The notes: generated by a model from the sequence alone, not told the origin. Shown: positions 946 to 46,931, counted from the first letter of the stretch. The stretch: 64,000 nucleotides of DNA from a phage (GCA_024614665.1 GCA_024614665.1_4861.1), one strand, 5' to 3'. Made by a program: numbers and translations.

Positions 946-1200
946 TTAGCCCATCACCGCTTCCAACGGAATGCCTTCTTCATCGTCCTCATCTGCCTCA
1001 ATAAGGAACTGGTTCTGCATACTGATTAGCTCGTTATGTAAAACCATGCCGTGTTCTACGCGGTCCACATCAGTAGAAGACATAAAGCCGTTATCTGGAC
1101 GGAATTGGAGCGCCAACTTCATCTCAGTTTCATCGACTGGCAAACGTACCTGGAACTGGTCACCATCGAAATCCTGTTTGTCCACCGTACACCGTTTCCG
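946..1200 (-). CDS. RNA polymerase beta-prime-like N-terminal module, exon 2 (catalytic DFDGDQ motif); 5' boundary approximate
   Basis: Translation ..KRCTVDKQDFDGDQFQVRLPVDETEMKLALQ matches the bacterial beta-prime region D ([23 protein letters not shown]); ORF track starts it at a GTG (1185) with no RBS, consistent with an internal exon; acidic C-terminal tail. Confidence 0.65.
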   Translation of the reverse strand, partial: RKRCTVDKQDFDGDQFQVRLPVDETEMKLALQFRPDNGFMSSTDVDRVEHGMVLHNELISMQNQFLIEADEDDEEGIPLEAVMG

Positions 1201-1559
1201 TATACAGCAGGTGTGCTAAGACACCCTCCTTATCTCTCGACAAGGCACAGACTATATCTTCACCATAGCTTACGCCTTAGGTGTTCTCCCACTTCGAAGT
1301 CCACTAGGACCCCTACTCGCATTTCAGCGATAGTCGTTGAACATTCCTCTCACGAGGCTTCGCTGCTGATTACCCATTATCACAACCCTTAGCACTATTG
1401 TTTAGCATAGGTCATCGTATCTGTTGTTTCAGACTTTCGTCCCCATTTCTGGTAGATACGCTTTAGGGTTTCCCAGCAATTCAGGAGAATACACATCGGA
1501 GGTTTCCCGTCCGATGGGGCTCTTTTCGAACCGTTAGCCATCTTTATCACACGGTCAGA
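1201..1559 (-). ncRNA. group I self-splicing intron (no homing-endonuclease ORF); boundaries about +/-25 nt
   Basis: Minus strand carries the canonical core elements in canonical order: P-like GAATTGCTGGGAAACC (1466..1481), Q-like AATCAGCAGCG (1361..1371), R-like GTTCAACGACTA (1331..1342), S-like AAGATATAGTC (1250..1260); interrupts beta-prime homology between region C and DFDGDQ; in-frame stops at 1395..1397 and 1216..1218 inside it. Confidence 0.6.
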
Positions 1560-2897
1560 GATACGCAGCGAACACTGGTTAACATCGGTAACAACTTCGT
1601 CGATGAACAGCGTCTGAATAGACAACTGTACCAGCGTTGGGTTACGTAGCGGTATAACCATGATCCCAAGACCGCCTGGGGATTCACGAATCAGTTCTTT
1701 AAAGATTTCGTCTACAAGCGGGTCATACTGCATTGCCGCTTTTGCGACGATACGTTCACACTGCCGCGACGAATAACCCCGGCGTAGCAGTTTGTTCTCG
1801 ATGTGGGTCGACATCAACCCAACCATCCAACGCCATGGTGCTTTTAACTTCCAGGCATCGTGTGGTTCTGAGATAGGTGAGATGGTTGCACGACCACCGA
1901 ACGGAATATGGGTGGAACCCAATTTCGCACGATAGTCACCCGGTTTACCTTCCATAGACTCACGACGGAAGTCCATGTGGAAGTACGTTAACTGACGGTT
2001 CGCTTTCAAAGCGCGACTAATCAGAAAACGCGGTTCGATCGCTTTACGCCGCGTATAAAGTAACGCGATATTTTTCACCGCATCAATAGCACCCGTGAAC
2101 ACTGGGTCTACCATGACACCACGACGACCTTCCTCAGTAACGATAAGTTTAGAGGAGATTAGCGGTAAGTGTCTTGGGAAGAATGCATGGCGTTGCGTTT
2201 CGAATAGCTCCTTCCATTGTAAACGTAAGCGTTCGCCTTCAGCGGCGTTATGCCGATTAGGTGCGAAGATTTCCTTCCAGGCTTCTGGCGTGGTAAGGAT
2301 GTTAAAGATACTAACGTGGTTATCAACCAGATTGCGCAAGCCACGAACGAAACCATGTTCTTCCAATACACGTTTCACAGCATGTGCGCGTTTACCGTCT
2401 GGTTCTTCTATAAGGTAATACGGGTCAATCATCCACATCATCAAGTCATTACCGCGTTCGATAGTGACCTTGTTACGTTCAAACTTCTTCAACTTGCTAT
2501 TAAAGAAAGCATTGAACATTGCCCAGAATCGTGGGTTGACGAAGTTACCCATTTCATCAGGTGCACGTAACCATACATCGGATTCAATTCGATGTTCAGT
2601 TACAACATAGCCACACGTCGGACACTTACAACCGAGATTGTAACGATGCGCGATCGGTGCCGGACAATCCAAACTACAAATCGGTGCAGAGTTCAGTTCT
2701 TCGTCAACGATTCTGTTCTGTACCATGCGATCGATAAGTTCAGCAACCTCGATCGCATCCCCGTTAACAGCGACATCGTTAATAATAGTGGGTGGTTTAA
2801 TACCTTTGGCAGCAGCTTCTATTTGCAAATCGGACAAATAGTTATCCTGACTAACCAACCGGCCGGATATTCCGTAGAATTTTGGTACCTTTCTCAC
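1560..2897 (-). CDS. RNA polymerase beta-prime-like N-terminal module, exon 1; 3' boundary approximate
   Basis: Cys cluster CSLDCPAPIAHRYNLGCKCPTCG (Zn-finger-like); GKPGDYRAKLGSTHIPFGGRATISP matches region B ([27 protein letters not shown]); VIPLRNPTLVQLSIQTLF matches region C (VLLNRAPTLHRLGIQAF); ORF track extends it to 1395 but the last ~55-65 codons are intronic read-through. Confidence 0.65.
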
Positions 2898-2979
2898 TCT
2901 GTCAACCTCAACAAAAAAAGAGGGAAGGACGGAGGCGTTAGCCCCCGTCCGTTTCCTAACTACTCAGTAACCGATTCGA

Positions 2980-4833
2980 TTACAGTTTGAAGTTGCTCAG
3001 AGACACGCCCAGACCGAAATCGGAACCGCTTGCAGACAGGCCGTTGCCAGACAGCGTGAAGTCTTCCCCACCGTTGTTGAAGAACAGAGAGGTCGCCATC
3101 GTGTTGTAGGCATTTACACCAGTCATAGACCAGGTGCAGTTGTTACGGACGAAGTCCAGCAGGCATTTACCGAAGATCGGGTTGATAGCCATATCCAGAG
3201 ATTCACCGGTAGCTTGCGGTGCTTTGGATGCGAACAGAGAAGCGGCCAGTTTCAGCATGTAGATACGCTGCTGACGCTCGTTCAGTTCACGGTGGCTGTA
3301 GGACTGTGCGTTCAGGTAGCTATAGACGTCGTTCGCGTTATCACCCAGTTTGGTAACAACGGAAATCAGGTCCATATCCTGGAAGCTGCGTTTCTGTGCA
3401 GTACCGGTGTAAACACCGGAAACAGTCGGTACGGCTGCTTTCACGATGTGGCTGCAATGGATGGTACCATTGAAGGCATCGCCCAGCTGTGCTTTCAGTG
3501 CAGAAGCAAATACTGCAGTGAAGCTGGTCGCTGCAACAACTTCGCCGTTCTGATCACGCGGGGACATGGAATTCAGAATAGCGAGCAGCTGTTTCAGAGA
3601 GTTGTCGTAACCGACCGCAATTTCAGACAGCATAGTAGACAGACCACCCAGGCCGTTACCGGCACGATGGCTAACTACCAGTGCTGCTTCACGCGGTGCG
3701 AACATATCCAGGCAACCTTCGATAGCTTCACGGCTACCGTCGATTTTGGATACATCAGGACGAGCGTCAGCACCCCAGGACAGGTATTCTGCCACACGGG
3801 AGAACTTGCGATCTTGTTTGTTCAGGCGTTTCACAAACAGGTCACGCCAGCCACCGATTGCCGCGATTTCTGCAAATGCAGCCAGCAGCAGCAGTTGACG
3901 TTCATACGGTGCCATTGCACCTTCAGTTTGAGAATCGACCAGACTTACTACGATTTCAGCCTGCAGCTGTTTCAGGTCGTAGACGCCGTTAACGACAGGT
4001 TTCTGACCGGTGAAACGCATATTGACGAAACCGGTACCGGATACACGCGGATACACCTGTACCTGATTGGTGTCCAGCAGAGTCGGAGTGGCATCGGTTA
4101 CGTTGCTTGGGCTGTGCTCAACGGTGATTGCGAAATCAGCACGCTGTGCGTGGCCGTTAGCATCCACAACCGCGCCATCTTCCAGCGGCATTACTGAGGC
4201 CTGATAACGGTCATGCTTACGCAGGTTCAGTGTACCCAGGTAGCCTGCGATACGACCGAAGATACCCATCATCATCTGACCCATCAGGGTACGTGCCCAC
4301 TCAGCATCCAGAACTTTACCCAGGTCTGGTACGGAGTTGATGATCATGAAGTTCGCATTGGTCAGACCATGCGCTTCCATGATGTTTTTCTGTACTACTG
4401 CCAGCACGTCTTTGTTGAACAGTTCAGTGATGGTGTAGTAGTCTTCCTGGCCGTTGTTGGTAGTTTCTTTCAGACGCAGAGACTGACCGCGTTCAAAGAA
4501 GATGATACCGTACAGCCAGTGGCCCTGCCATTGGCCTGCGACGTACGCCGCGGAACCCATTTCGTTACCCACGCCGACGATGGTGCCCCAGCGGAATGCG
4601 TTGAGGTATTCGTTGCTTTTCTTCAGCTCATCCAGGAGGTTGGTGAAGTGCATTGCATAAGTGCTGATGTTGCGGATGCCAAATGCGTTATCGAATTGGC
4701 TGACAGTAGAAGTACCCGGCACAGCAGTTTGCACTTTTACAGTCTCGTTGCCCAGACCGCCCAGTGGTGCGGTGTCTTGAGTCTGAGTGTTGTTCTGCTG
4801 AGCGTTGTTGTTAGAGTCAACGATTTTTACCAT
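2980..4833 (-). CDS. 617-aa protein with strong codon bias; candidate major structural or phage-nucleus shell protein (function unassigned)
   Basis: Long ORF with markedly host-optimal codon choice; sits directly upstream of the RNAP beta-prime gene; the long antisense ORFs across it are typical of highly biased genes. Confidence 0.6.
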   Translation of the reverse strand: MVKIVDSNNNAQQNNTQTQDTAPLGGLGNETVKVQTAVPGTSTVSQFDNAFGIRNISTYAMHFTNLLDELKKSNEYLNAFRWGTIVGVGNEMGSAAYVAGQWQGHWLYGIIFFERGQSLRLKETTNNGQEDYYTITELFNKDVLAVVQKNIMEAHGLTNANFMIINSVPDLGKVLDAEWARTLMGQMMMGIFGRIAGYLGTLNLRKHDRYQASVMPLEDGAVVDANGHAQRADFAITVEHSPSNVTDATPTLLDTNQVQVYPRVSGTGFVNMRFTGQKPVVNGVYDLKQLQAEIVVSLVDSQTEGAMAPYERQLLLLAAFAEIAAIGGWRDLFVKRLNKQDRKFSRVAEYLSWGADARPDVSKIDGSREAIEGCLDMFAPREAALVVSHRAGNGLGGLSTMLSEIAVGYDNSLKQLLAILNSMSPRDQNGEVVAATSFTAVFASALKAQLGDAFNGTIHCSHIVKAAVPTVSGVYTGTAQKRSFQDMDLISVVTKLGDNANDVYSYLNAQSYSHRELNERQQRIYMLKLAASLFASKAPQATGESLDMAINPIFGKCLLDFVRNNCTWSMTGVNAYNTMATSLFFNNGGEDFTLSGNGLSASGSDFGLGVSLSNFKL

Positions 4834-5018
4834 TTTAAATATTCCTTAATAGTGATTGCAATCATAGTTCGGTTCGCAGAGATAATATCTGCCTGTAATT
4901 TCATGGAATGCAAGTATGCCGTCGCTTACTTACAAGGCACATAGTCCAGACATTTCTCAGGAACTGTCACATAGATAATATCAATCTGAGATATTTTTGA
5001 CTGTGACTGACTTCCTAT

Positions 5019-6107
5019 GTGGAATCTAAGGAGTCTGCCATGTTCAGCCAAGCCGAGTTAAACCAAGTGGCCATAAAGGGTCACAGCACGGACCCCTCCG
5101 CTATAACATTAGCGGCTCACGTAAAAAACAACAGCCAGCGTATACGCAACTACTTCGAACAGCTTAATCGCAGTGCTGGTAATGGCCATTTGTTGCAACA
5201 GGTGTTGTCTGCCATCGGCTATGCCGGTGAACCAGAGTACGAAGACATCGAATGGGCTTGCCGTCGCAAGCTTGTTCAGATCGGTAACGCCTTACGCTTG
5301 ACGTCTGTTGGTGAGTACGGTCAAATCTTTAATAGCAAGTTTATCCAGGGCCAAGATGAGGTAATCTCTCTCGTAGCCCGCCCAGTAAATCCAGACCTTT
5401 CGTTCCGCGACTACACCCCCGCCCGTTACCTCTACCATGAGTATACCAACCTCAATTGGAAGTTCGGTGACGGACGGCCCCGAGGTGTTACGGTGATCGA
5501 AATCAACCTGGTTGCTTTGCTTTGGCAATATGTCAAAGGCCAGCAGCACTACAGTCGCGGTACCGAACCTATTGCCACACCTGTGTATCTCCAACGACAT
5601 GTGATCTCTCGCATGTTGCCGAGCTACATGGATATCGCCTTTGTAAATATACATCGTGCGATAGCCTTCGGGAAAGAGATTGAACCGGATGAAACATTAC
5701 GTGTCATTCCTGTTCCGCCGCTTCAAGCTTTAGCTGTGAAGCACGCAAAAGGCATCCGTAGTAAACTACTGGCTGCCAACCCGTTACCGGGACAAGTCTT
5801 AAACAACATCCCATTGTTCTTCCAACACCCTGATGAAGAAGGCCACACTGCACTGGAACTGATTGTCTTTCGAGAACCAGGTCAAACACTGCAGAACACC
5901 TGGCACCAGAACATGGTGAACTGGTACTGGGCACTGTTTTGTCTTCAATACAACCAGGGGAATATGGAGAAACACAAACGTACGATGTTGGTTGATTTGG
6001 CGCGTTATGTGGACTCTAAAGTCCTCACACGTTTGACCAAATCCTTCTATAACTTCATCCAACGCGATTTGATTATCCCGTTGATGACAGAGCTAGAAGA
6101 AAAATAA
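5019..6107 (+). CDS. hypothetical protein (362 aa)
   Basis: ORF track; ATG preceded by AAGGAG; divergent from the 2980..4833 gene across a 185-bp intergenic region; followed by terminator. Confidence 0.55.
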   Translation: MESKESAMFSQAELNQVAIKGHSTDPSAITLAAHVKNNSQRIRNYFEQLNRSAGNGHLLQQVLSAIGYAGEPEYEDIEWACRRKLVQIGNALRLTSVGEYGQIFNSKFIQGQDEVISLVARPVNPDLSFRDYTPARYLYHEYTNLNWKFGDGRPRGVTVIEINLVALLWQYVKGQQHYSRGTEPIATPVYLQRHVISRMLPSYMDIAFVNIHRAIAFGKEIEPDETLRVIPVPPLQALAVKHAKGIRSKLLAANPLPGQVLNNIPLFFQHPDEEGHTALELIVFREPGQTLQNTWHQNMVNWYWALFCLQYNQGNMEKHKRTMLVDLARYVDSKVLTRLTKSFYNFIQRDLIIPLMTELEEK

Positions 6108-13167: not shown

Positions 13168-13330
13168 CGAGAAATGCTCCTTAAGGATAATTCACGAAGA
13201 TAATATCTATGCAAAATTTCTTCGAGTATGGTGCGCACATAAAGGTCGTAAAACGTATTTTAATGTCAGGTAATGGGATAGCATTACCCGATGGTATGAG
13301 TTGTCCTACGAGCTTCATAGGAGCCTTAGA

Positions 13331-16105: not shown

Positions 16106-16195
16106 GATGCATACCTTTTATAGTCGAGTTGGGAGAATTCAGATGAGGATTTCTCATCTCACTTAGGTAATATCTATCTGTGGATATTTGGAATG

Positions 16196-37572: not shown

Positions 37573-37661
37573 TGTAAATACTCCTTCTGGGTAATAGTCG
37601 ATTAAAGCGTTAACGTGTAACGCTCACCTAAGTAATATATATCTCAGTTCTTTTTGAATGC

Positions 37662-40174: not shown

Positions 40175-40903
40175 TTACCTCATATACAAATCCTCGAGTG
40201 GCTCTGCACGTACCGGATCGACCTGGAGTGCAGAACGGATACCCTGTTTCAGCTCCACATCTGCAATCTTGGCCAACCTGGAAGTTTTGTTCAATGAACC
40301 TGAACGCAGCGGAATAAACTGCACCCGATTCATCAAATCGCTGTCTTTTTTCAGGGTGTAGCGGAAATACGTCCGCGGGTCGCCAACCTTACGCTGTGTG
40401 TGGGCAGCATAACAGTCAGCGGTGATCTGGTCGTTAAAGACCGTAAAGCCGTTCCACGTCTTAGTGTCAGACAATAGCTCAGCGTCATCTACTGCGGTAT
40501 ACCAGAAAGGCCGGTTGCCGAAGTCGTAGATGTACGAAGCGATGTTGTAGACTGGCGAGGATAGCACTTGCAGCATTCGGTTGGGGAACACCACCGTGCC
40601 GGGGTCAAAACGGAACTCGTAATACGGCACACCCTGAACATCAATTTCCTCAAACGCCGACGGGGTAATTTCAATGAACGTCGTGACGTTCGATACCCCG
40701 TAGGTTTTGCGGTCAGTGGAGATAGCGAAAATACCGACGATTTCTACTTGCGAAGAAATTACCGCCAGCTCTTTAGCCACGAAGCCAACAGGGATGTAAA
40801 TGTAACATCCCCCTTTGGTGATGGTGGCCGTGCCTTGGTCCACTAAATCTGCATGAATTTTCGTCGCGTCACGACGTGCTGTTTCAATGGCGCTCACGAC
40901 CAC
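40175..40903 (-). CDS. hypothetical protein (242 aa)
   Basis: ORF track. Confidence 0.5.
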   Translation of the reverse strand: MVVSAIETARRDATKIHADLVDQGTATITKGGCYIYIPVGFVAKELAVISSQVEIVGIFAISTDRKTYGVSNVTTFIEITPSAFEEIDVQGVPYYEFRFDPGTVVFPNRMLQVLSSPVYNIASYIYDFGNRPFWYTAVDDAELLSDTKTWNGFTVFNDQITADCYAAHTQRKVGDPRTYFRYTLKKDSDLMNRVQFIPLRSGSLNKTSRLAKIADVELKQGIRSALQVDPVRAEPLEDLYMR

Positions 40904-42725: not shown

Positions 42726-45700
42726 TTAGTTGATTTTAGCCGGCAAGGCTGGGACGTCTTCACCATCTAAGATGCGTCCGATGTTCTCCCCACCACGATA
42801 CCCGACAGCGTTGGTGGTTCCGATGCGCATGATAGAACCTACGATACGTGCGTCGACGGAATCACGACCAAAGATAATGTCGAGTTCCTGCCCGTCTTCC
42901 GTTTTGTTGGTTCCATACATCACTTCCTGAACCGTCGTTTTCAGCTGGTTAGCAATAACCATCTTATCCGCTGCTGCCATCTCTACCCGGTGTGTGATGT
43001 AGAATCGGACACACAGGCTATTGTACGCTAACGGCACCCCCTCAACACGAAAATCACCGTTGACTCGACCGTCCTTCGGCTCGTCACGTTTGAGAGCCAG
43101 CGCAGTCTTCCGACGTATACGGTCGTATTTACGAACCATCTCCGCCAAAGACGGGGTCATATCTTCCAACTCGCCGTGGTAAACCACTTCGATTTTGTCG
43201 ATAAACCCACGAACACCAGAGCGTGGTGCAAAGGAGCTTAACTCACGCAGCGTCTCCGCTGCTTCTTTACTGAACCCGCTCATATCGCCAGTCAGGTTGT
43301 CGGTGAAGGTGCATAGAATTGAATCCACGTCTACGTGGTCCCCTTCTTTTACCATCTCCAACAGGTTCTGGGTGAATGTCATTGTGACTTCTTTGAGTTT
43401 GGTAACATCGGCTTCGGCCTTAGCAGCGAACCGCTCACTAATGGCGTTGGAGTCCTCAATTACTTCTTCCCCTTCAATCAAAGCGACAGTTGCCAGTATC
43501 CCGTTTTTAAAACTGACCTGCGTTGGATCATAGATGTCTGGTTCAAAGTGTTGTTCGTTGTACGTGATAACGGCACCGGCAGGGAGTTTATCTCCGCGCT
43601 TCCATTTCGTTACCAGGGTGTGTGGGTAGTAAGTCCCTTCGTGCGGACCGAACCAACGACCCAGTGGGAAAGCTTCTTCCTCCCCGTCGTCGTATTTGAT
43701 TTTAACGTGGTCGTTAAGAACCTCCACAATCTTGCCAGGTTTATCGATTACGCGTGCGTGCTTCACAGAAGTACGGTGTGCCACGAACTTTTCTTGCTCG
43801 GTACGATACGGTGTGGTGGTTGCGCCAACACAACTGGTCGCAGAACCGAATTGAATCCCAACGAAGTTCTGACGCTTAGCATCGTCCATCAGGGTATCCG
43901 GCACCAAGCCATCAATAAACGACAGCGCCTCACCCGGCTTCAGTTTATCGAGGTCCTTTTTAAAGGTCGTGCCGTCCACGGTATCGTAGCGCGGGTTGTT
44001 TGTTGCAAAGGCGGTGATACCTACGTCGCCGTTATCGACCGTGTTACCGGAGACAATCCCCAGGTCGCTCGGTTGGAATTCACGGGTACTGTAGACCATG
44101 GTTTTGCGGTTACGACCGCCTGTACCGCCCATGGTAACGACATCCTTTTCTTTGATGTTCTGTACCGGGTTTGCGCCAGGTGCCAGCAAAACAGACGGGT
44201 CGGAGTTAATTGCACCCCACACCATGTCCTGTGTCAGCTCAAACTTACGATTCGAGTTAGGCGCGTTGTTGTAGTTACGCATCGCCCGCACCATCGCGGT
44301 GTAGATGTGATACGAAATACGTTGGTTCCCGATGAACATCATTTCGTCACCGTTAATTTCCGGTAACGTGTGGTCCGTCTGCAGCAGTTCGTTAGAACGC
44401 TCCAGTAAGCCGATAAAGGTTTCCGGCTCGCCCATTTTCCTGAGGATACGCGCGTGCATGTCGTCAACAAATGCGGTCCGCATCAGCTTCAGCTCTTTGA
44501 TGTAGCGTGGTGTTAGCCCATCTGCATCGCGTAACAGGTTCAGGTAAATGTCTTCCCGGTCAACTTCCGACTCGGTATACGTGGTAAAGTGTTTAATGTA
44601 ACGGTCTAAGCCGTTGACAATCATCCTCTGTTGATCGTTCTCGCAGACAATTGCAATTTTCGCATCCTGGAGACGAATAATGGAGTCGAACTGACCTTTA
44701 TCGATACGTTGTCCGACAGAGAGAACCTCGTAACTGATACCGAAGTGTTTCAACATCCCGGTTAATCCGAGATAGTACGCAAACACAAAGCCCAGCGAGA
44801 TTGATTTACCCATCAGTGACAATTCAGTCATTTCACGTGGAGCCTTAGCGGTGTCCACGCCAAAGACTTCGGCGAGTGTACCCAGTGGTTCGGTCTTATC
44901 CTTATCCACTCGATAGAGCTGGGAGTTTTTATCCATACCGACGATGACATGACTCCGCGGTTTCTTCGCCACAGGTACCAGCTCGACACGGTCCGCATCT
45001 GCCAGTTGCCCTTCGTTAAAGAATACCGCTTTCTGTTTAATGTCAAAGTTCCATTGGTACCCAATTGCGTTGAACGTTGCTACACGACGCGCTACTTCGG
45101 TATATTGGCGCGGCAGTTTAGACAGCGGATCGAACACATTCGCCAGTTTTGCATCAGTGATTTCGGTGTTCTTTGGATCGACTGCACGAGTAATAATCGC
45201 GTTAGTGAGCCAACGTCCGTAATCATTGACGACTTTATCGCTGCGACGGACAAAGTTCTTCCCGTAGGCAGTGGTTAACGCTACAGTATCGTGGGACACT
45301 TTACGGATAGGAACATCGACGCGCTGACGACGCATTGTATATTCCACACCATTTGCAACCCAAGTACCGTCTTCGGTTAATGCAGGAATTGAGAAACGTA
45401 CCGTGGTTGGTTCTCCGCCAATCGGCTGAATACGCAACGTGTGGTGTTCGATATTCCCGGTAACGGAAATCTCTTTCTCAACAGTGTGATTGTGAATCGC
45501 CAAACCGAGACGCTGAGATGACGCCACTGCACCCAGAACATCTTTCGGGAAGATTTCCTGGTTGTACTGACGAATGATTTGGTCGGTGGTATTTTCCGCC
45601 CAGGCTTCATCCGTAACTAAGCGTTCAATCTTCTTAGGCTCGGCTTTAACTTCGAGTTTCTTCGGATCAATGGTCAGACCTTCGCCGTACGTCTCTTTAG

Positions 45701-46931
45701 GATTGTACGGGTTGGGTAAGTTTACGAAACGTTTAGAAGATTCGTTCAGGAACTGATACGCTTTGGCGGTGACGCGGCCCGCTTCTGCCAGACGCTCAAC
45801 TTCCTGTTTAATCACAGCATCGTGTGGGATGGTGCGTTCTACGACGATGGTGGTTGGTTTGACATCTTCTTTCGGCGCTTCGATGACCAGATCTTCTTTC
45901 TCATCGAACTCATGATCGTTCAATGTGTCGTCGGCGTTGTCGCTTTGTGTTGCTTCATCGTCGACGATATCGAGGGTTTCTTCCGGTTTACTGGCAACGG
46001 TATCAACAGCATCGTCGTCCTCACCCAGATGTACGCGTTCGTCCCCTTCCGGTGTAACGAACTCGTCATCTTCGTAGTCGGTAGACGGCGGTGTGGTCAT
46101 CACAGTAGTCAGTGTACGGTAGAACATTCTGCCCATCTGCACGTCAGTCAAACGACCACCGGCAGACTTACGCATTCTTTCAATTACACCCATGTTCATG
46201 GATGTAAAACCACCGTTGTGCGTGAAGATAAAGTTCACACGTGACAGCTGGTTCATGTCCATACCGTCAAACAGGGTTGCTTGCTGATCGCCGTAAGCCC
46301 AACCGAACAGTTCCAGTAACCACAGGAGATTAAAGTCCTTAAAGCGCTCCAGTTTGGTTTTAACACGATCGTTATACGTCGTTTTAAAACGATCGAAAGA
46401 AGGCAGTACGTTACCCAGTTCGATGATGTAGTAGTTCTGACGCATGTACTCACGTGAGTCAGTTTTCATCTGGTTAGTTATCAGCAGCTGAATGTTGTGC
46501 AGACGTTCGTACCAGGACATCAGAGTATCAGGGTAGAAATAATGCGGCAGCATCGGGGTGTAGTTTTCGATGAGCAGCACTTTTGGATCGGAACGTACCA
46601 CGCCGTCTTCAATCATGCGACGAATACGACGGTTGTTACGATGGTACTGGAAGATTTGACGTTCTTGGCCAACAACCGGTTTCTTACGCGGATGGCCGAT
46701 AATGCCGTCTTCAGGCAGCTGGAAGTGGTGGCGAATCATCGCCGGTTTTTCCAGCTGGCCAAAACACGGTGTAGTTAACGGCGGCGCTAAAACCACCTGG
46801 TCTAAATCGATGGTGTGGTAGATAGAACCACGTGGGAGCTGGAGCTTCTCCAGCGGGATAATACGCGGGCGACCGAACTCATCGGTCTTGCGCACGGTAA
46901 AGCGCTGGTTAAACTGTTTCAGAAAAATCAT
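42726..46931 (-). CDS. multisubunit RNA polymerase beta-like subunit (1401 aa; N-terminal/central module with long acidic insertion)
   Basis: TMGGTGGRNRKTMVYSTREFQPSDLGIVSGNTVDNGDVGITAF resembles the bacterial beta Rif-region segment [44 protein letters not shown]; C-terminal GEMEVWAL-type region not present; adjacent to beta-prime N module. Confidence 0.55.
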   Translation of the reverse strand: MIFLKQFNQRFTVRKTDEFGRPRIIPLEKLQLPRGSIYHTIDLDQVVLAPPLTTPCFGQLEKPAMIRHHFQLPEDGIIGHPRKKPVVGQERQIFQYHRNNRRIRRMIEDGVVRSDPKVLLIENYTPMLPHYFYPDTLMSWYERLHNIQLLITNQMKTDSREYMRQNYYIIELGNVLPSFDRFKTTYNDRVKTKLERFKDFNLLWLLELFGWAYGDQQATLFDGMDMNQLSRVNFIFTHNGGFTSMNMGVIERMRKSAGGRLTDVQMGRMFYRTLTTVMTTPPSTDYEDDEFVTPEGDERVHLGEDDDAVDTVASKPEETLDIVDDEATQSDNADDTLNDHEFDEKEDLVIEAPKEDVKPTTIVVERTIPHDAVIKQEVERLAEAGRVTAKAYQFLNESSKRFVNLPNPYNPKETYGEGLTIDPKKLEVKAEPKKIERLVTDEAWAENTTDQIIRQYNQEIFPKDVLGAVASSQRLGLAIHNHTVEKEISVTGNIEHHTLRIQPIGGEPTTVRFSIPALTEDGTWVANGVEYTMRRQRVDVPIRKVSHDTVALTTAYGKNFVRRSDKVVNDYGRWLTNAIITRAVDPKNTEITDAKLANVFDPLSKLPRQYTEVARRVATFNAIGYQWNFDIKQKAVFFNEGQLADADRVELVPVAKKPRSHVIVGMDKNSQLYRVDKDKTEPLGTLAEVFGVDTAKAPREMTELSLMGKSISLGFVFAYYLGLTGMLKHFGISYEVLSVGQRIDKGQFDSIIRLQDAKIAIVCENDQQRMIVNGLDRYIKHFTTYTESEVDREDIYLNLLRDADGLTPRYIKELKLMRTAFVDDMHARILRKMGEPETFIGLLERSNELLQTDHTLPEINGDEMMFIGNQRISYHIYTAMVRAMRNYNNAPNSNRKFELTQDMVWGAINSDPSVLLAPGANPVQNIKEKDVVTMGGTGGRNRKTMVYSTREFQPSDLGIVSGNTVDNGDVGITAFATNNPRYDTVDGTTFKKDLDKLKPGEALSFIDGLVPDTLMDDAKRQNFVGIQFGSATSCVGATTTPYRTEQEKFVAHRTSVKHARVIDKPGKIVEVLNDHVKIKYDDGEEEAFPLGRWFGPHEGTYYPHTLVTKWKRGDKLPAGAVITYNEQHFEPDIYDPTQVSFKNGILATVALIEGEEVIEDSNAISERFAAKAEADVTKLKEVTMTFTQNLLEMVKEGDHVDVDSILCTFTDNLTGDMSGFSKEAAETLRELSSFAPRSGVRGFIDKIEVVYHGELEDMTPSLAEMVRKYDRIRRKTALALKRDEPKDGRVNGDFRVEGVPLAYNSLCVRFYITHRVEMAAADKMVIANQLKTTVQEVMYGTNKTEDGQELDIIFGRDSVDARIVGSIMRIGTTNAVGYRGGENIGRILDGEDVPALPAKIN

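Follow-up and report, generated by a model that had tools for sequence, protein, structure and literature searches.

What does the gene at positions 2980 to 4833 of this phage sequence encode? The window analyzed here is a stretch of 64,000 nucleotides (nt) from a phage (GCA_024614665.1), and its minus strand carries at these coordinates an open reading frame (ORF) of 617 codons with an ATG start. A preliminary description made from the sequence alone had noticed this 617-amino-acid (aa) gene, whose boundaries we recover, and had left its product open between a major capsid protein and a shell protein of the phage nucleus. The shell alternative stands and the capsid alternative falls. We are highly confident that the gene, chmA, encodes chimallin (ChmA/PhuN), the principal phage-nucleus protein of an SPN3US-like Salmonella jumbo phage (Seoulvirus, Chimalliviridae). 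The compartment built from chimallin protects the DNA of jumbo phages against restriction and CRISPR nucleases and keeps transcription apart from translation. Neither the family nor this gene's membership in it is new, the chimallin identity being already in the literature: Laughlin et al. (2022) described the SPN3US protein "gp244" (gp22 in the GenBank numbering) as a diverged chimallin homologue with 10% identity. The SPN3US copy is nevertheless labelled "hypothetical protein" in every record, as are the copies in all of the 40+ related GenBank records, which can now be recognized as chimallin genes.

Predicted fold and architecture of the protein

The chimallin identity is settled decisively by the predicted structure, since it matches chimallin/PhuN. 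A model computed with AlphaFold2 from the clade alignment (predicted local distance difference test [pLDDT] 76, predicted template modeling score 0.78) has a well-predicted core at about residues 54 to 577, flanked by residues 1 to 53 and 578 to 617 with pLDDT below 50, which are predicted to be disordered. In a Foldseek search of the PDB, all nine matches with an E value of ≤0.001 are chimallin/PhuN of Goslar (7sqv), 201phi2-1 (7sqq), and phiPA3 (8fne), with E values from 6e-21 (Goslar 7sqv) to 1e-15 and template modeling scores of 0.58 to 0.71 over the whole core; the tenth match has an E value of 0.08. Among the predicted viral structures of BFVD, 17 of the 19 matches with an E value of ≤0.001 are full length (E ≤2.4e-17) and involve proteins of 590 to 691 aa. 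Every one of these 17 that carries an organism name is a phage protein, and we take them to be proteins of jumbo phages related to phiKZ. The two-domain core, made of an alpha/beta N-terminal domain and a GNAT-like C-terminal domain, superposes on the solved chimallins.

The hidden Markov model and structure-based searches proposed in the preliminary description do discriminate between its two candidates: the structure matches only chimallin/PhuN, and no HK97-fold capsid protein is among the matches listed in three structure searches. Two circumstantial points speak for an HK97-fold major capsid protein, whose high expression would reflect about 1,560 capsid copies per virion: the length of about 600 aa falls among the sizes of jumbo-phage capsid proteins, and no other ORF of the window has so strong a codon bias. 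The fold search refutes that reading, and in SPN3US the major capsid protein is gp75; we consider a capsid role vanishingly unlikely. Published SPN3US data also answer the comparison of virions with infected cells that had been suggested, and they speak against a main virion component: gp22, the SPN3US orthologue, is abundant in infected cells (as quoted second-hand) and was not identified in wild-type virions or in DNA-full heads.

The protein consists of an N-terminal tail, the folded core, and a C-terminal tail (Table 1). The fraction of sequences carrying the majority residue is 0.64 at the N-terminal tip, 0.30 in the linker that follows it, 0.68 in the core, and 0.65 in the C-terminal tail; residues 11 to 44 are accordingly hypervariable, whereas the C-terminal tail is predicted to be disordered yet is conserved like the core. 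[quoted passage not shown] In the C-terminal tail, the motifs SLF(F/Y)NNGGE.F.LSG.G and SDFGLG..F.L are probable equivalents of CTS1 and CTS2, the C-terminal interacting segments of chimallin, which tie adjacent tetramers together and whose roles in 201phi2-1 chimallin are described in PMC9365700. Conservation without predicted structure is the pattern expected of docking arms, and the tails would dock in this manner. The C-terminal tail, with 40 residues beyond the core, is shorter than that of 201phi2-1 (about 50) and has its own motifs.

By analogy with 201phi2-1 and Goslar, the two-domain core would form tetramers in which the segment before the core (FD.AFG, NTS) binds the neighboring protomer, while CTS1 and CTS2, carried on flexible linkers, would bind protomers of adjacent tetramers. 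Tetramers knit together in this way could form a pliable square lattice one protein layer thick. Such a lattice would enclose the replicating phage DNA along with non-virion RNA polymerase (nvRNAP), whose beta'1 subunit is encoded by the next gene, and would shut out host nucleases and ribosomes.

The GNAT-like domain raises the question of whether the protein is an active GNAT-family acetyltransferase or a toxin-derived enzyme, instead of or besides being a shell protein. In the model, a strand and a helix of this domain flank the glycine-rich loop HRAGNGLGGLS. The pattern HRAGNGxGGLS is nearly invariant in the clade of SPN3US and Erwinia phages and specific to it in comparison with the solved chimallins; of its residues, R390 and G392 are also conserved in the family at large. 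Motif A of GNAT enzymes is the loop that binds the pyrophosphate of acetyl-CoA, and the glycine-rich loop resembles it at the level of sequence. The C-terminal domain also bears a distant fold resemblance to the tRNA-acetylating GNAT toxins AtaT and TacT. However, the Pfam scan of the window protein found no GNAT family match and no sequence family connects it with AtaT or TacT; the active-site residues are reported to be absent in chimallins, and chimallin is a lattice-forming structural protein. Enzymatic activity seems to us extremely unlikely. There is a slim chance that the loop binds CoA, a nucleotide, or another phosphate ligand and couples it to assembly or pore gating, or that it is the least-derived link to the proposed GNAT-toxin ancestor.

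Remote homology, gene order, and published orthologues

Homology of the window protein to recognized chimallins appears at the profile level only, where pairwise and single-profile searches fail. Aligning the clade profile with a profile of phiKZ-type chimallins in hhalign gave 417 collinear columns with an E value of 4e-6, pairing D.NGH.QRADF with D.GNPIRSDI and KRS.QDMDL with EKRDRRDLD. The alignment runs collinearly into the C-terminal tail, reaching residues 580 to 602 of phiKZ gp54 (the CTS1 region). A HMMER scan with the clade profile retrieved only 24 cluster representatives among 1.84 billion proteins, and one of these, the bridging sequence P0104, passes the Pfam model PF25677 (Chimallin_Phikzvirus) with 35.4 bits at a cut-off of 27. 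Once distant members were included, the iterated profile matched phiPA3 PhuN (8fne) with an E value of 3e-18 and 201phi2-1 chimallin (7sqq) with an E value of 5e-6. In PHROGs, the window protein belongs to phrog_8316, a family without known function.

Several results weigh against the chimallin assignment. The only outcome of the Pfam scan of the window protein (E ≤1) is a spurious, sub-threshold flagellin D2 match. Neither phmmer nor the unexpanded 27-sequence clade profile matched anything in the PDB even at an E value of ≤10, and BLASTP of the window protein against phiKZ gp54 was not significant. The chimallin/PhuN proteins of 201phi2-1 (gp105), Goslar (gp189), and phiPA3 (gp53), solved in structures 7sqq-7sqv, 8igg, and 8fne, are only 12 to 14% identical to the window protein, and the probability given by hhalign is 87%, below 95%. 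In addition, we infer the link between the SPN3US protein and the lattice described below, because we found no mass-spectrometry identification of the lattice protein in accessible papers.

One further negative result bears on the clade rather than on the family. With PF25677 (local version.1, gathering cut-off 27 bits), no match with an E value of ≤1 was found for the window protein and five close homologues, while phiKZ gp54 scores 1121 bits; because the model was built on the phiKZ-type clade, this failure separates clades and not families. Faint precomputed matches to PF25677.3 are recorded for nine homologues, and for five of the homologues flagged in this way the match was not reproduced with the local PF25677.1.

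Gene order links the window to phiKZ as well. In phiKZ, DNA polymerase gp50 is followed by small ORFs, gp52 on the opposite strand, gp53, shell gp54, and nvRNAP gp55, and the nuclear shell protein gp54, a PF25677 member, thus occupies the same position in the conserved gene block as chmA. The preliminary description had treated the position beside an RNA polymerase (RNAP) subunit as informative, and rightly so, as phiKZ gp54 adjoins the nvRNAP gene gp55 in the same order. The succession of DNA polymerase, opposite-strand gp52-like gene, shell, and nvRNAP beta'1 is common to the window, phiKZ, and four other genera, with SPAsTU, Asesino, Caitlin, and CR5 sharing the arrangement of the window. 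The window belongs to a Chimalliviridae genome (Seoulvirus) that has two multisubunit RNAPs, with the shell gene beside the nvRNAP beta'1 gene.

An experimentally studied relative in another genus is gp039 (ChmA) of Asesino, an Erskinevirus infecting Erwinia. The protein shares 64% identity with the window protein along the full length, a GFP fusion of it forms a ring around phage DNA (PMC11724907), and its gene has identical neighbors, with gp040, called nvRNAP beta'1 in the same paper, downstream. The two promoter-like boxes found upstream of chmA in the window are also present in Asesino. In contrast to the window, the Asesino RNAP gene is annotated as one uninterrupted ORF.

Published work on SPN3US is consistent with a lattice-forming protein. 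Heymann et al. (2020) saw large tetragonal protein sheets in the clarified lysate of a mutant SPN3US infection, and Laughlin et al. (2022) suggest that SPN3US gp244 forms the square lattice seen in SPN3US lysates. The SPN3US genetics group, on the other hand, proposed that gp22 is a scaffold or core protein of the head. In protease-mutant prohead preparations, the peptide-spectrum counts of gp22 are comparable to those of the major capsid protein, even after two gradients, and gp22 is absent from mature heads (PMC7411985), as would suit a scaffold. However, purified "mottled" capsid intermediates contain little or no gp22, and the predicted protein is globular, with two alpha/beta domains superposable on chimallin, rather than an elongated helical scaffold. 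Given the tetragonal sheets, copurification would be explained more simply by cosedimenting sheets or by proheads docked to the shell, and the Asesino orthologue rings the DNA mass. A scaffold or core role therefore strikes us as very unlikely beside that of chimallin.

The two names of the SPN3US protein have separated these lines of evidence. RefSeq and GenBank number the SPN3US genes mirror-wise (ACQ60_gpN = SPN3US_0[266-N]); the chimallin gene is ACQ60_gp244 (YP_009153316.1) in RefSeq and SPN3US_0022 (AEP83855.1) in GenBank. The name "gp244" is used by RefSeq and by Laughlin et al. (2022); GenBank and the work of the SPN3US genetics group use "gp22". What GenBank itself calls "gp244" (YP_009153538) is unrelated: it is a virion protein of 240 aa that has been described as the C-terminal part of the virion RNAP's beta' subunit. 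As a result of this clash, the "abundant gp22, possible scaffold" was not recognized as chimallin, and we found no paper in the accessible literature that equates SPN3US gp22 with chimallin. A 2025 preprint (10.1101/2024.12.31.630880) cites YP_009153538 as the SPN3US chimallin; this is apparently the wrong protein, an accession to which the numbering apparently led. With GenBank gp22 and RefSeq gp244 being one and the same, the nuclear-shell protein turns out to be what had long been debated as a candidate head scaffold. Both loci involved in the clash lie on the minus strand of the window (Table 1).

Within the genus, the chmA DNA is 99.0 to 99.5% identical to that of SPN3US, SaP7, JN03, and further Seoulvirus jumbo phages infecting Salmonella or E. 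coli, and the window protein is 99.8% identical in aa sequence to the SPN3US copy. A protein identical to the window chimallin is recorded under the Salmonella enterica serovar Derby locus tag XI41_21145, so the phage sequence also sits in bacterial genome assemblies, which fits reports that jumbo phages persist in isolates of bacteria. Records of the SPFM series of Salmonella phages hold several versions of 413 to 586 aa, in which the clade profile matches in 17 to 24 short stretches and BLASTP coverage is low; they seem to reflect frameshifts or assembly errors, not genuine variation.

Codon usage, antisense frames, and expression signals

Codon bias was compared among the 50 nonoverlapping ORFs of at least 100 aa within the window. 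The chmA gene has the highest codon adaptation index (CAI; 0.664, versus a mean of 0.323 and a standard deviation of 0.086 for the others; z = 4.0), calculated with manually entered Sharp-Li E. coli w values. The effective number of codons, which requires no reference table, gives chmA the same rank (34.4, the lowest value; the next is 38.5). The bias of chmA exceeds that of the tail sheath gene and of one virion structural protein in the window. Its G+C content at third codon positions is unremarkable (0.58); therefore, the bias is not a G+C effect. The preliminary description had called this the strongest codon bias in the window, as both indices bear out, and had read it as a sign of very high expression, which agrees with the published proteomics of SPN3US gp22, as quoted second-hand.

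The same description had regarded two long antisense ORFs opposite chmA as artefacts, and they are indeed by-products of codon choice. Both occupy the frame directly opposed to the sense codons, and they exist because chmA is nearly devoid of TTA, CTA, and TCA codons: the first two are absent, and the third occurs once, as codon 213, where it creates the stop (4195-4197) between the two ORFs. Orthologues with 44 to 79% identity contain 0 to 2 of these codons, and their antisense stop-free runs extend up to the full gene length. In phiKZ gp54, by contrast, CTA occurs 35 times and no long antisense ORF is present. Substitutions between chmA and SPAsTU number 223 at sense codon position 3, compared to 92 and 77 at positions 1 and 2. 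We reject real antisense genes at this locus: the frames are open in every enterobacterial orthologue only through the avoidance of TTA, CTA, and TCA, and substitutions fall on sense third positions.

The chmA start codon is preceded at 9 nt by a Shine-Dalgarno sequence (Table 1), around which TAAGGAATAT is kept in orthologous loci. The upstream region of 206 nt contains two copies of a box with the consensus CAG-N3-GATATTAYC-N3-GTGA, and these promoter-like elements are GATATTATC boxes. Across the window, the motif has 10 matches with ≤3 mismatches versus 0.84 expected; the good copies are intergenic and have the same orientation as the downstream gene, and three further co-oriented intergenic copies are listed in Table 1. 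In SPAsTU, Asesino, Caitlin, and CR5, whose proteins are 44 to 79% identical, both boxes are kept upstream of the orthologous gene, although the proximal copy is degenerate in CR5. A scan for the sigma-70 promoter consensus found two matches versus 2.5 expected, which is chance level.

A review states that, in jumbo phages encoding an RNAP, early promoters carry AT-rich motifs some 10 nt long close to position -10. Judged by sequence, the boxes appear to fit this description, and they may represent the consensus of early promoters, used by the virion RNAP, in this group of phages; chmA would be expressed early. That chimallin is made in very large amounts is suggested by host-favored codons, a strong ribosome-binding site, and the conserved pair of promoter-like boxes in tandem.

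A terminator-like element sits between the chmA stop codon and the start of the RNAP gene. Its hairpin, which the consensus terminator scanner missed and which was spotted by eye and then folded, has a predicted free energy of -25.6 kcal/mol (z -3.6; 1 of 200 shuffled sequences is equally stable).

Neighboring genes and the group I intron

The preliminary description had placed the 617-aa gene directly upstream of an intron-split RNAP gene, and family assignment (phrog_2987), the intron model (RF00028), and reconstruction of the splice all bear this out. The chmA gene lies 82 nt upstream of this gene, whose product is 27% identical to phiKZ gp55 (E = 9e-42). The intron matches the Rfam group I intron model RF00028 with 65.5 bits (gathering score 50; E = 3e-15). 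The last base of exon 1 is T and that of the intron is G, and removal of the 356 nt (1174-1529) yields a 531-aa product that is identical to SPN3US gp23 at 530 of 531 positions. The insertion point lies inside the catalytic NG|DFDGD motif of nvRNAP beta'1. SPN3US lacks the 356-nt intron, only six other Seoulvirus records have it, and its copies are 96 to 97% identical, in comparison to about 99% for the flanking genes; this restricted occurrence and lower identity suggest that the intron is mobile and polymorphic. No homing-endonuclease ORF was seen within the intron.

On the other side of chmA, the divergently transcribed gene encodes a product with BLASTP similarity to phiKZ gp52 (E = 3e-8). 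The DNA polymerase of the window is of a divergent family-B type, and a second, large RNAP beta-like gene is also present.

Table 1. Positions of chmA, its parts and signals, and other features mentioned in the text (window coordinates)
Feature	Position	Strand	Remarks
chmA coding sequence	2980..4833	-	Chimallin, major phage-nucleus shell protein, 617 aa; SPN3US_0022/ACQ60_gp244 orthologue; one locus of the naming clash
N-terminal tail, aa 1-44	4702..4833	-	Conserved tip MVK(I/V)V, then hypervariable low-complexity linker
Folded two-domain core, aa 45-577	3103..4701	-	Opens with FD(R/N)AFG; holds the glycine-rich loop
Glycine-rich loop, aa 389-399	3637..3669	-	HRAGNGLGGLS, in GNAT-like domain
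C-terminal tail, aa 578-617	2983..3102	-	Motifs SLFFNNGGEDFTLSGNG and SDFGLG..F.L
Shine-Dalgarno sequence	4843..4847	-	AAGGA, read from the sequence
Proximal promoter-like box	4874..4895	-	CAGGCAGATATTATCTCTGCGA; 41 nt upstream of chmA ATG; putative promoter
Distal promoter-like box	4967..4988	-	CAGATTGATATTATCTATGTGA; perfect consensus match, 134 nt upstream of chmA ATG; putative promoter
Further box copy	13192..13213	-	Intergenic
Further box copy	16159..16180	-	Intergenic
Further box copy	37624..37645	-	Intergenic
Terminator-like element	2913..2950	-	10-bp G+C-rich hairpin (2950-2927), then T-rich run (2926-2913)
nvRNAP beta'1 gene	946..2897	-	Exon 1 1530-2897, intron 1174-1529, exon 2 946-1173; phrog_2987
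Divergently transcribed gene	5019..6107	+	Homologue of phiKZ gp52/SPN3US gp21; phrog_3938
Second RNAP beta-like gene	42726..46931
Second locus of the naming clash	40175..40903	-
Antisense ORF	3214..4197	+	327 aa, opposite chmA
Antisense ORF	4213..4944	+	243 aa, opposite chmA
Plus-strand ORF	2592..2990	+	132 aa, opposite RNAP gene start
Plus-strand ORF	1051..1392	+	113 aa, opposite intron/exon region

Two further plus-strand ORFs lie opposite the RNAP gene (Table 1), and both are probably spurious; the 113-aa one has a CAI of 0.20, the second lowest in the window.

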